Shown here in pieces: positions 11,383 through 14,746 of a DNA stretch of 33,127 nucleotides; position 1 is the stretch's first letter, and each line of letters begins with the position of its first letter. Source of the stretch: a virus (lineage: Duplodnaviria > Heunggongvirae > Uroviricota > Caudoviricetes); the IMG/VR virus record IMGVR_UViG_2534682108_000003, positions 1 through 33,127 of that record; one strand, given 5' to 3'. The translations under genes were made by a program, and so were the position numbers. The notes beneath the pieces are model-generated. The model made no database searches. It was not told where the DNA came from and saw only the letters and a list, made by a program, of their open reading frames with translations.

Positions 11383-12108
11383 TTAGGCTGCGGTAGAAAC
11401 ATTAACTAGATTTCTCAATACTTCAACTCCTTTTGAGTTGTAGCGGAATGCTTCCACCTGTTTGCTGGAATGCGCAGATTTATCCAGGAAGAACTTCCCG
11501 TACTGCTCAGTTTTGAGGTTGTTTGCGTTAGCAATGCGACCAATCTTGTTTGCCGTTACTCCAAGCTGCTCTGCAACCTCCCCTGCTGAGTAGTAATGCT
11601 CTTCTATTGCCGGAAGAGGTATTGCATTAAAACCAACGAGCGGGTTGATTATACTTGCTGCCGCTGTCTGCTTTGCCTCCGGCGCAAGATTTGGCATCAG
11701 ATCGAACAGATTGGTAACAGCTTCAACCGTCATTTTCAATGTTCGCGCTTGACGATACTCAACAAGTCCACTCGCTGATTTACCGCTTTTAATGTGCGCT
11801 TCCTGCATACTTTCAAGTTTGTCTACAAGTGTTCGGCGAACTGCTTTAGATTCGCGAGCAGCAACACGAAGCGCCTGCTTGATAGTCATGGAGATAACAT
11901 CAATGTCAGCCCCGTTTTTCCGACCTACACTTTTTGTGTAGGTCTCGCCTTCCAATTCATCCTCAATTTTCTCGATGAATTTGTTGTTACGTACTGATGG
12001 CTCTCCACATAACTTGCGAGCTTCATTAACCATCATCAGAAGACTTTGGCTGTCAATGGTTTTATCCGTGACAACGGATCCGATGTTTGCTACATTCTTA
12101 AAAGTCAT
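11383..12108 (-). CDS. phage antirepressor, KilAC-domain type
   Basis: ATG at 12108 with AAGGAA SD; about 241 aa; product family assigned from my recollection of KilA-C antirepressor sequences; the track ORF to 12192 overlaps the upstream gene and is probably over-extended. Confidence 0.5.
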   Translation of the reverse strand: MTFKNVANIGSVVTDKTIDSQSLLMMVNEARKLCGEPSVRNNKFIEKIEDELEGETYTKSVGRKNGADIDVISMTIKQALRVAARESKAVRRTLVDKLESMQEAHIKSGKSASGLVEYRQARTLKMTVEAVTNLFDLMPNLAPEAKQTAAASIINPLVGFNAIPLPAIEEHYYSAGEVAEQLGVTANKIGRIANANNLKTEQYGKFFLDKSAHSSKQVEAFRYNSKGVEVLRNLVNVSTAA

Positions 12109-12191
12109 TAGGCATTCCTTATGTGGTAGTAAGGGTGTGACATAGGCCGCCAGCAGCACACTGGCGGTTTTTTTCACCGCCAGATGCGTCA

Positions 12192-13106
12192 TTAATACAG
12201 ATGAACAGAAGGCGGCAATTCTTTATTCTTAAGCCTTATCCATGCGGAAAGATTCGTTGGTCCGTCTGGCTCATTAATATCAACATCTCGTGTGTGGTTT
12301 ATTAAAACGTCTCTCGCCATTCCGATAACATACGAGAATTCATGACCGTAGTCGTAGCATCTGCCGGAATAGTTCGATTGAATTTGTTTTAGCGCCGGAT
12401 ACAGTTCGCGGAATAATGCCTGTGAACGGTTGGCATAATCCCATAACCATACAAGGCTGTTTGCTTCTTTTGCAGAAAGCTCGTTGGTTTTCTTCTCTTG
12501 TTTGCCGATGAATTCACCTTCAAGTGGAACTCGAGCTGCAAGTGACAGTGCTTCGGTAAACTGCTCCTCACTGATTTCTTTGTACGAACATCCAAAATGG
12601 GATTTCAGTGACGACCACATGGTGATCATCGCCTTAGCCTGTTTTTCTTTTGGCAGAGACTGACCGCGACTCATGACGAGTTGTTTAATAGCTTCCTGCT
12701 GTTCAGTGGTGATTTTACCAGGCAACGCTTTTTTATCTTTCGGTGTATTTCCGTAAGACCCCGTTTTACGAATGGATGGCAAAACTTCAGCTGTTACCCA
12801 TTTGCGGAATTTGTGCGGGACTGAACCTTTATTGACGGCATCACGGCAGCGCAGAACCAATGTATACATACCTGATTCGCTCACAATGCTTAAATTCTGC
12901 TCACCACCAAGGGTGTAACTTAAAGTTACTCCCTTCTCATCGTCATCAAGTGCAGTAAGCGCCTTGCGTGAGTTAGTCAGGGTTAAAGCATCACAAACAT
13001 CTTTTGCTACAAACCACGGCTCACCGCACTTGTTGATGACGCGGATTTCACTGTCGCCGAATTTGAAGATGGTGAAATCGTTTTGTTCCTTTGCTATACT
13101 TTTCAT
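12192..13106 (-). CDS. phage antirepressor with Bro-N domain (Ant-like)
   Basis: 304-aa ORF; N-terminal Bro-N-like region ([30 protein letters not shown]); located directly downstream of an Arc-like gene, as ant is in P22 immI. Confidence 0.65.
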
Positions 13107-13177
13107 GTCAATATTTCCCGATCAGATTTGTTGATGTAGAAGCCTCGCCAGTTCCCGCTGTCGGGGCTTCGTTATTT

Positions 13178-13339
13178 TTAGAGAGCATTCCGCATTTTCT
13201 CCCGGTACTTCAACCACCAAGCAAGTCCCTGAACCAACACTGAGTTTTCTGACATCCCCTCTTCCTTAGCGATGCGTTTCACCTCCTCCTTAAAACGGTA
13301 CGGATACCGAAGAGTTGTCTTCACTTCATTCTTTTCCAT
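13178..13339 (-). CDS. arc: Arc-like ribbon-helix-helix repressor (53 aa), not in the ORF track
   Basis: Hand-translated: ATG at 13339 with AAGGAG SD 5 nt upstream, TAA at 13178-13180; MEKNEVKTTLRYPYRFKEEVKRIAKEEGMSENSVLVQGLAWWLKYREKMRNAL; pattern parallels P22 Arc as I recall it; divergent from the mnt-like gene. Confidence 0.5.
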   Translation of the reverse strand: MEKNEVKTTLRYPYRFKEEVKRIAKEEGMSENSVLVQGLAWWLKYREKMRNAL

Positions 13340-13441
13340 TGATTACTCCTTTTTACGTAATGGCATTATGCCTTGAAAGCAATATGCCATCATTGAATAT
13401 AAATAGCAATATGCCATCATTGTTTTTTTTGAGGTGATGTT
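13340..13441. promoter_or_regulatory. divergent promoter/operator region between arc-like and mnt-like genes
   Basis: Two 18-bp direct repeats AGCAATATGCCATCATTG (13378-13395 and 13405-13422) plus an inverted copy of the ATGCCAT core at 13360-13375 (AATGGCATTATGCC); flanked by divergent RHH repressor genes. Confidence 0.45.
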
Positions 13442-13762
13442 ATGGCTGAAAAGCAGGTTAAAGATTACGAAAAGTTTGTTGTGCGTTTCCCTGACGGGAT
13501 GAGGGACGCGATTGCGGAGAGAGCCAAACGAAACGGGCGCTCTATGAACTCAGAGATTGTGCAGATACTGGAAGATGCCTTGAATGCAGAAAATACTCTT
13601 GGGGAAATAGCAGACAAAATCAACAGCGTCTCGGTTCCGCTAAATGTTGATGCGCTAGTTCAACTTCAAGCCCAGGTTATCGCCATGCAAAAAGAAATAC
13701 AGGAAAAGTTCAGAGAGCAGAACGAAAAGTTGAGAGAACTACTAAACAAAAAACCCACCTGA
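13442..13762 (+). CDS. mnt: Mnt-like ribbon-helix-helix repressor
   Basis: 106-aa ORF with GAGGTGA SD; N-terminal RHH segment FVVRFPDGMRDAIAERAKRNGRSMNSEIVQILEDAL closely parallels the P22 Mnt N-terminus as I recall it; coiled-coil C-terminus. Confidence 0.65.
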   Translation: MAEKQVKDYEKFVVRFPDGMRDAIAERAKRNGRSMNSEIVQILEDALNAENTLGEIADKINSVSVPLNVDALVQLQAQVIAMQKEIQEKFREQNEKLRELLNKKPT

Positions 13763-13777
13763 CGGTGGGTTTCATAA

Positions 13778-14746
13778 TTAGATTTCTGGTTTCATTCTTC
13801 CGAAAACCTTTTCTATTCCTTTTTCGTATTCTTCTCTTGTCTCACTCATCGCTGCGACACCAAGAAGCTTACCGATATGCTGACGCAAAGCCTTGACACC
13901 AATTTCAGAAAGGAACAGATGCAACTTATCAGATTGTTTTCCGTTCTCGTCTCGGCTGGCTCGAATCTGTTCAAGTATTTTACCTTTACTCTTTGCTAGC
14001 GGGGTGTATATCTGCATGTTGGTTAGCTGCCCAAAACGAATAGGCCGTCCTTTCTCTGGCCTATTCAGTCCGTACAGTCGATACCACTCCTCGTATAGCT
14101 CATCTGGAAATTCCTTTTCATATTGACGAGCCTCTTCACGAACAAACGCTTTGAACTCGTCAATGACAGCCTGAACTTCTGGACGATAACCAGCAAGCGC
14201 ATACGCAACCCCCTTAATTCCCGCCTTAGCGGAGGCATTAATAAGTCTCTGTGCTGCGGCGGCTGCCTTTAACCGTGATTGTGGTAGATCGTCATTATCT
14301 TTGGCTTCTATTAGTGCCCTACCAATATCAACAATTGCTGTAATGTCATAACCTAACGCTTGATGAACGGTTTTAGACTTCGAAGTAAGTTGAAATTTAT
14401 AGGGATTTTCCATTTTTCGCTGCAATTCTAGATCTCGGTATTTGCTCATATACTGAGCGCCAAGCAGTTGATCTAAATCCCTGGCATGTTCACCAATCCC
14501 TAGCAACTGAGATAATCCAGTTTTCGTAACAACGACAGTTTTCGACTCGTCATCCAGTACATAACATTCAGCATCAATGCCAAAATCATCTAAAAAGTTA
14601 CCACGATGAGTTGCCCTGAGAATCTTACTTTTCCATCTTGCAGCAGCTGCTTTCTTTGCTATTTCAGAACGCTGCTCTTTAGTCAGCGATTTTGCGCGAG
14701 CGATCCCGCCCTTGGCTTTCCCTTCGCCACTTTTCTTTTCAGTCAT
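13778..14746 (-). CDS. P63C-like phage protein, putative DNA-binding (322 aa)
   Basis: ATG at 14746; N-terminal basic motif KGGIARAKSLTKEQRSEIAKKAAAARW, which I recall as common in P63C-type phage proteins; the track ORF extension to 14848 runs into the promoter and is rejected. Confidence 0.45.
   Translation of the reverse strand: MTEKKSGEGKAKGGIARAKSLTKEQRSEIAKKAAAARWKSKILRATHRGNFLDDFGIDAECYVLDDESKTVVVTKTGLSQLLGIGEHARDLDQLLGAQYMSKYRDLELQRKMENPYKFQLTSKSKTVHQALGYDITAIVDIGRALIEAKDNDDLPQSRLKAAAAAQRLINASAKAGIKGVAYALAGYRPEVQAVIDEFKAFVREEARQYEKEFPDELYEEWYRLYGLNRPEKGRPIRFGQLTNMQIYTPLAKSKGKILEQIRASRDENGKQSDKLHLFLSEIGVKALRQHIGKLLGVAAMSETREEYEKGIEKVFGRMKPEI

Follow-up and report, generated by a model that had tools for sequence, protein, structure and literature searches.

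The 102-bp gap between two divergent RHH genes in a 33,127-nucleotide stretch of Caudoviricetes DNA (IMG/VR record IMGVR_UViG_2534682108_000003; hereafter, the window) probably holds three operators of the Mnt-like RHH repressor encoded beside it, placed over both predicted divergent promoters. We favour the Mnt-like rather than the Arc-like protein as the ligand because the sites covary with the DNA-reading strand of the former, match the site recognised by AmrZ, and combine invariant subsites with variable linkers. A sequence-only reading of this DNA had assigned the repeats in the gap to both Arc and Mnt; that they are operators placed over the two promoters is very probably correct, whereas the evidence collected here ties all three to the Mnt-like protein only.

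An immI-type locus with two divergent RHH genes

Judged from its gene content, the locus is an immI-type control region, in which a mnt-like gene stands divergent from an arc-like gene that is followed by ant (Table 1), the gene order found in P22 (mnt-type RHH gene divergent from arc-type RHH gene, then ant). The gap extends from 13340 to 13441, with the arc-like gene on the minus strand at one side and the mnt-like gene on the plus strand at the other; its length and the flanking ORFs agree with the earlier placement of the repeats between divergent RHH genes. Related DNA is present in Lederbergvirus phages, Shiga-toxin phages, Edwardsiella phage GF-2, and E. coli prophages.

Table 1. Positions of the genes, repeats, putative operators, and predicted transcription signals in the window.
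Feature	Position	Strand	Description
ant, anti-repressor	13106..12192	-	304 aa; Pfam Bro-N and P22_AR_C; PHROG 245, E = 1e-111
sar-like antisense RNA	13108..13174	+	candidate; spans the arc-ant junction; Rfam RF00262, 28.5 bits, full length, under the gathering score of 43
arc-like gene	13339..13178	-	53 aa; RHH protein, strand VKTTLRYP
O1 (putative operator)	13361..13373		TGGCA-TTA-TGCCT, centre 13367; near-perfect palindrome, best of the three; core GGC-ATTAT-GCC
O2 (putative operator)	13377..13389		AAGCA-ATA-TGCCA, centre 13383; within first 18-bp repeat
First 18-bp repeat	13378..13395	+	AGCAATATGCCATCATTG; exact match
Predicted Pant	13381..13409	-	-35 TTGCTA (13409-13404), 17-bp spacer, -10 CATATT (13386-13381), start ~13374; best hexamer pair on the strand
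Predicted Pmnt	13393..13420	+	-35 TTGAAT (13393-13398), 16-bp spacer, -10 CATCAT (13415-13420), start ~13427; best hexamer pair on the strand
O3 (putative operator)	13404..13416		TAGCA-ATA-TGCCA, centre 13410; within second 18-bp repeat
Second 18-bp repeat	13405..13422	+	AGCAATATGCCATCATTG; exact match
mnt-like gene	13442..13762	+	106 aa; N-terminal RHH domain, strand KFVVRFP, long C-terminal helix

The mnt-like protein matches the Pfam Arc family (PF03869; E = 1.6e-19, 69.9 bits against a cut-off of 20.4) and is 47% identical to P22 Mnt over 43 aa, the BLASTP alignment covering residues 6-48 only and the C-terminal domain being unrelated in sequence to that of P22 Mnt. Its matches in the PDB are AmrZ (3qoq, E = 6e-9), which is the closest solved relative, Mnt, and Arc. 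An AF2 model gave a confident 34-residue C-terminal helix (residues 69-102) that resembles the oligomerisation domains of Mnt and AmrZ, and the protein probably forms tetramers, as those two repressors do. The 53-aa arc-like protein is a more distant RHH protein: it scores 17.5 bits against Pfam Arc, under the cut-off of 20.4, matches PHROG 582 ("Arc-like repressor") with E = 1.6e-10, and its profile finds Arc in the PDB with E = 1.5e-4. The AF2 model of this protein (pLDDT 81) comprises an extended N-terminus and helices at residues 14-27 and 31-52, for which the best Foldseek matches were Arc, CopG, and AmrZ.

Two further features of these genes were noted. A second anti-repressor-family gene, ant2 (11383-12192, minus strand, 269 aa; PHROG 1726, E = 9e-99, with no Pfam match), comes immediately after ant, its start codon overlapping the ant stop codon, so that Pant would drive the arc-like gene, ant, and this second ant-like gene. 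A 23-nt inverted repeat (74%; 13224-13246 and 13547-13569) connects the arc-like and mnt-like genes, and we regard it as a trace of paralogy and not as a structure because it consists of homologous NS.(L/I)VQ helix codons on opposite strands.

The repeats form part of three pseudo-palindromic sites

Both copies of the 18-bp repeat described for this gap were recovered as exact matches whose starts lie 27 bp apart. Allowing up to 3 mismatches, these are the only two copies of this sequence in the 33 kb, where dinucleotide shuffles expect 0.05. The inverted ATGCCAT element reported at 13360-13375 was likewise found, as the reverse complement ATGGCAT (13360-13366) with ATGCC again at 13369-13373, and a repeat finder returned a 15-nt inverted repeat (13360-13374 and 13376-13390) that is 80% complementary and centred on 13375. 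An "inverted" ATGSCAT 7-mer alone carries little information, however, because it is nearly its own reverse complement.

The arrangement had been described as direct rather than purely palindromic, and this description did not hold, since each repeat contains a 5-3-5 pseudo-palindrome, (A/T)AGCA-ATA-TGCCA, in the format of P22 O_mnt. Read together with their relatives, the repeats are better understood as belonging to three 13-bp pseudo-palindromes of the form TGGCA-N3-TGCCA, which we call O1, O2, and O3 (Table 1) and whose centres are separated by 16 bp (O1-O2) and 27 bp (O2-O3). In O2 and O3 the left subsite is weakened in the same orientation (AGC for GGC), and both are followed by a common flank, TCATTG, that is absent at O1. 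The direct-repeat appearance of O2 and O3 is thus accounted for by the same weak-left/strong-right asymmetry together with flanks that coincide with promoter hexamers; in relatives, the linker and flank of O2 differ from those of O3.

The 11-bp core RGCAWTATGCC, searched with zero mismatches, occurs in the window only at O1, O2, and O3. Two one-mismatch copies lie inside ant on the minus strand, 22 bp apart (12410-12420, GGCATTATTCC, and 12432-12442, GGGATTATGCC), and in both the mismatch falls on a GGC/GCC position; they are probably due to chance, since about 2.5 such matches are expected in the window.

From O1 through O2, subsites recur every 8 bp exactly (four centres, at 13363, 13371, 13379, and 13387), so two tetramers could bind these operators side by side. 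RHH dimers of MetJ and CopG occupy adjacent, regularly spaced subsites, in MetJ the tandem 8-bp met boxes, and the spacing at O1/O2 resembles that of tandem met boxes. Unlike in those systems, the regularity is lost in other operator classes: O1-O2 spacing ranges from 16 to 20 bp across classes (17-20 bp in the KFNLR and KFTVR classes described below), and a side-by-side array would therefore not be general. No co-repressor is implied by the comparison.

Joint covariation of the three sites with the Mnt-like DNA-reading strand

The comparison drew on IMG/VR, GenBank phages, and bacterial contigs (one genome per species), which yielded more than 100 related loci; both RHH genes and the gap were taken from each. 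An unbiased scan of each locus for its best trio of related 13-mers found three everywhere, in a register that slides because the sites are pseudo-palindromic, and the register was set by the 5-3-5 model. Three related sites, occasionally four, were present in every collected locus, in several bacterial orders, with a sequence specific to the class and a constant format. Their recurrence bears on the view that no protein binds here at all and that the repeats are a local duplication or promoter elements repeated by chance. The 18-mers do include pieces of four predicted promoter hexamers, and their exact identity is lost in several relatives. The presence of three sites of constant format in every related locus speaks against this view, as does the combination of invariant subsites with variable linkers, which would not be expected of promoter hexamers alone; we regard the view as very improbable.

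Across the more than 100 loci, a different DNA-reading strand in the Mnt-like protein goes with a different version of all three sites (Table 2). The arc-like strand VKTTLRYP, which in some loci belongs to a protein one residue away from that of the window, is paired with three site families, and the sites are unchanged where the Mnt strand is the same but the Arc-like proteins differ. Local alignment of the gap DNA gave scores of 41-74 where the Mnt contact residues agree and the Arc-like proteins differ, against 9-33 where the Arc-like protein is shared and the Mnt class differs.

Table 2. DNA-reading strands of the Mnt-like protein and the sites found in the adjoining gap.
Mnt-like strand	Sites	Found in
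KFVVR	GGCA..TGCCA	window
KFNLR	GCCA-TAA-TGCCA / TGGCA-ATA-TGGCA	Stx phage 2851, GF-2
KFTVR	AGGCA-AAT-TGCCT	
KFM(L/V)R	TGTCA-CGG-TGACA	Pectobacterium to Duganella
RFNIR	ACCAA-N-TTGGT	
RFTVR	CATCA-N3-TGATG	

Nine loci of the KFV(V/L)R class with diverged flanking genes were compared. None of the six 5-bp subsites differs among them, variation being seen in the 3-bp linkers of O1 and O2 and in the flank on the right of O2; O3 is invariant in 9 of 9. A natural change at a contacted subsite base was seen in an otherwise identical locus (L010/L091; IMG/VR 2675903580_000003), where O2 has TGCTA for TGCCA at the equivalent of window position 13387. Another locus (L071; IMG/VR 3300048927_000085), whose gap is otherwise typical of the KFMLR class, has a tandem array, tttatagctttatagcttgatagctttatagctttatatc, inserted in the stretch from O3 to the mnt-like start.

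The same comparisons weigh on a division of labour after the P22 pattern, with O1 as the Mnt operator and the exact repeats O2 and O3 as operators of the Arc-like protein. Such a division would suit the location of O1, which is that of P22 O_mnt, and of O2 and O3, which lie upstream near the -10 and -35, roughly where P22 O_arc sits, and it would give a meaning to the flank that O2 and O3 share and O1 lacks. O2 and O3, however, follow the Mnt-like strand where the Arc-like protein is identical (window versus L093 and L104) and remain constant where the Arc-like protein changes (L117 versus L084/L118, L124 versus L128, and L012 versus L109). They also have the AmrZ-type GCC subsite expected for KFVVR, and the flank common to both falls on promoter hexamers and is variable at O2 in relatives. 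We consider the division improbable, and retain the assignment of all three sites to the Mnt-like protein.

Operator sequences and Mnt N-terminal codons are adjacent, and the covariation could in part reflect linkage within one recombining block instead of selection, a reading disfavoured by the match of the sites to the chemistry of AmrZ. [quoted passage not shown] These boundaries and the C-terminal exchange suggest that the operators and the Mnt N-terminus behave as one exchangeable unit.

The sites have the format recognised by AmrZ

The crystal structure of AmrZ on DNA shows two 5'-GGC half-sites, with a 5-bp AT-rich linker between them, being read by Lys18, Val20, and Arg22, of which Lys and Arg are the guanine-reading residues (PMC3325190). 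[quoted passage not shown] The DNA-reading strand of the mnt-like protein, KFVVR, is identical to that of AmrZ and includes the three contact residues Lys, Val, and Arg, and the aligned RHH regions agree at about 25 of 45 residues (counted by eye from the alignment). Set against amrZ1, O1 reads TGGCATTATGCC, and O2 and O3 read AGCAATATGCC. The GGC-N5-GCC format of amrZ1 (GGC-AAAAC-GCC, in TGGCA-AAA-CGCCG) is therefore found with both half-sites at O1, and with one half weakened at O2 and O3 (AGC-AATAT-GCC); the A-tract linker AAAAC differs from ATTAT and AATAT in the window. Invariant subsites with variable linkers fit this mode of readout because AmrZ leaves the linker uncontacted.

On these sequence grounds, the operator chemistry matches AmrZ rather than P22 Mnt, whose recognition residues are H, N, and R (read by eye from the alignment) as opposed to K, V, and R in the window. 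The two proteins are also alike in having a C-terminal oligomerisation region (predicted in the window) and, if our proposal for the window is right, in autorepression. Unlike the phage immunity repressor considered here, AmrZ is a chromosomal global regulator, and its two sites lie at a distance upstream of the promoter of its own gene, in place of three sites over two promoters.

The putative operators overlap both predicted promoters

A stricter promoter scan of the 102-bp gap found no promoter. The candidates in Table 1 come from a looser hexamer scan that was checked on the annotated Pant and Pmnt of P22, both of which it recovered. The candidate hexamers CATATT and CATCAT are weak matches; the best promoter pairs of the looser scan keep their position relative to both start codons in the window and in every operator class, with the Pmnt -10 lying 20-23 nt upstream of the mnt-like ATG in most classes. 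We infer that Pant and Pmnt are overlapping divergent promoters in the P22 geometry.

With these assignments, O3 would lie over the Pant -35 and abut or overlap the Pmnt -10, O2 would lie over the Pant -10 and end 4 bp from the Pmnt -35, and O1 would cover about +2 to +14 of Pant. The distance from the predicted Pant -10 to O1 is 14 bp, compared with 15 bp for P22 O_mnt. The weakened left subsite of O2 would also be the Pant -10 hexamer and that of O3 the Pant -35 hexamer, and the right flank shared by the two sites would serve Pmnt, at O2 with the TTG of its -35 and at O3 with its -10, CATCAT. O2 and O3 would thus be asymmetric in the same sense because their weak left subsites and right flank double as promoter hexamers.

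In the mechanism that we propose, one RHH dimer would bind each subsite by placing its two-stranded sheet (Lys, Val, and Arg of KFVVR) in the major groove, and the long C-terminal helix would join two dimers to give one tetramer per operator. O1 should be filled first, because it has two good subsites where O2 and O3 each have one weakened, and its occupancy would block Pant as in P22. O2 and O3 would follow, reinforcing repression of the arc-ant operon and limiting the repressor's own promoter. Operator occupancy would in this way silence anti-repressor synthesis in the lysogen, and higher repressor levels would limit mnt transcription too.

The Arc-like protein may share these sites

To look for a motif of Arc type in the gap, loci of one Arc-like type but different Mnt classes were searched for their best common 10-, 12-, and 14-mers, which were no better than those of control triples; the top common k-mer of same-Arc-type loci was the T-run and ribosome site of mnt. 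O1 had been suggested as an Arc-like site by its right half, TGCCTT, which resembles the KFTVR sites. We rejected the suggestion, since a KFTVR locus whose Arc-like protein is of another type (L123) has this half-site as well, and since O1 and O2 are identical to each other in KFNLR loci whose Arc-like type is that of the window. A possible palindrome or roadblock in arc-like codons 6-11, GAAGA-N4-TCTTC, was also set aside, its DNA not being conserved in relatives (read by eye).

The Arc-like protein could instead bind the same three sites as the Mnt-like protein, with different affinities or filling orders, as Cro and CI do at lambda OR; made from Pant, it would then limit ant expression after infection. 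Such sharing would add to the explanation by Mnt-like operators and would not replace it. It is consistent with the lack of a separate Arc-type motif in the gap, with the RHH fold of the Arc-like protein, and with the Lys and Arg, the guanine readers of AmrZ, that the window's Arc-like (K,T,R) and Mnt-like strands have in common. Contact residues are identical in 6 of the 16 distinct Arc-like/Mnt-like strand pairings (KLNLR/KFNLR, KINLR/KFNLR, KYNLR/KFNLR, KTTLR/KFTVR, KFMLR/KFMLR, and PTGIR/PFGLR). Against sharing, the middle contact residue differs in the window (Thr in the Arc-like and Val in the Mnt-like strand), and the S,Q,R type of Arc-like protein pairs with three unrelated Mnt classes. 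Changing a short N-terminal region is also said to suffice to switch operators in P22 (reportedly Youderian et al. 1983; Knight and Sauer 1989). We treat shared binding as possible but on balance doubtful.

A wider proposal, which we put forward tentatively and hold to be somewhat unlikely as a whole, is that throughout this widespread branch of immI-like loci the operators and the first ~15 mnt-like codons form one swappable specificity cassette, that the arc-like gene lacks a separate operator, and that the Arc-like protein either competes for the same sites or acts without binding the control region. In the competing variant, the locus would be a Cro/CI-style two-repressor switch built from RHH paralogues.

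Comparison with P22 immI and lambda OR

In sequence terms, the locus is a variant of the P22 immI switch built from the same parts, from which its putative three-operator form differs. Gene order and orientation are the same, the predicted divergent promoters overlap in the same geometry, a 5-3-5 Mnt-type operator stands just past the Pant -10 (GTCCA-CGG-TGGAC in P22, TGGCA-TTA-TGCCT in the window), and in both loci a terminator hairpin contains the mnt stop codon; P22 has the sar antisense RNA, of which the window has a candidate. Unlike P22, which has one Mnt-type operator, the window has three putative ones, and it has neither a 21-bp Arc-type operator in the Pant spacer nor an Arc-specific motif, so that the P22 arrangement of one Mnt operator at the Pant start and a separate Arc operator between -35 and -10 was not found. 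The predicted transcription starts are about 53 bp apart in the window, compared with about 37 bp in P22. The "ant moron" is highly variable, and its P22 version alone has been studied (PMC2629481). We found no description of a three-operator form in the literature searched on this variant, on Arc/Mnt of Stx phages, and on the "ant moron", in which the functional study was of P22 only.

Lambda OR offers an analogy only: it also has three graded pseudo-palindromic sites between divergent promoters, with ordered filling and negative autoregulation at the last site, both of which may apply here. Unlike the RHH repressors, its proteins have the helix-turn-helix fold, the spacing and promoter arrangement are different, and site sharing, which is established for CI and Cro, is hypothetical here.

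The general picture of immI regulation from P22 is unchanged by these results. An anti-repressor under this control can turn a prophage from lysogeny to lytic growth, near relatives of the control region occur in Shiga-toxin phages of E. coli O157:H7, and the KFNLR version is carried by about 290 of 5426 complete E. coli genomes. The comparative set provides several natural and mutually distinct repressor/operator pairs on one scaffold, of use in studying DNA recognition by RHH strands and, as orthogonal parts, in synthetic circuits. If operators and strand are indeed exchanged as one cassette, the pairs K-V-R, K-N-R, K-T-R, K-M-R, R-N-R, R-T-R, and P-G-R would constitute a recognition table for an RHH subfamily. 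The main value of the locus lies in this natural table of strands and operators and in the question of what the Arc-like protein binds; assigning each protein to its sites allows the circuit to be tested with few constructs.

A candidate sar-like RNA and the mnt terminator

The candidate sar-like antisense RNA (Table 1) is preceded by a promoter-like site at 13072-13100 (GTGAAA-17-TATACT with TG). Its predicted fold has two hairpins (-26.4 kcal/mol, z = -4.9), with a T-run after them, and a terminator-like hairpin is present. Rfam matches to MIR3440, ctRNA_pGA1, and sroH in the region were far under threshold and were discarded. At the other end of the locus, the mnt-like stop codon lies in the loop of a terminator hairpin at 13742-13781, AAACCCACC-TGAC-GGTGGGTTT. 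Many homologues terminate in KKPT even where the C-terminal domains are unrelated, and P22 mnt ends likewise; this ending is kept apparently because its codons form the A-run and stem of the terminator hairpin.
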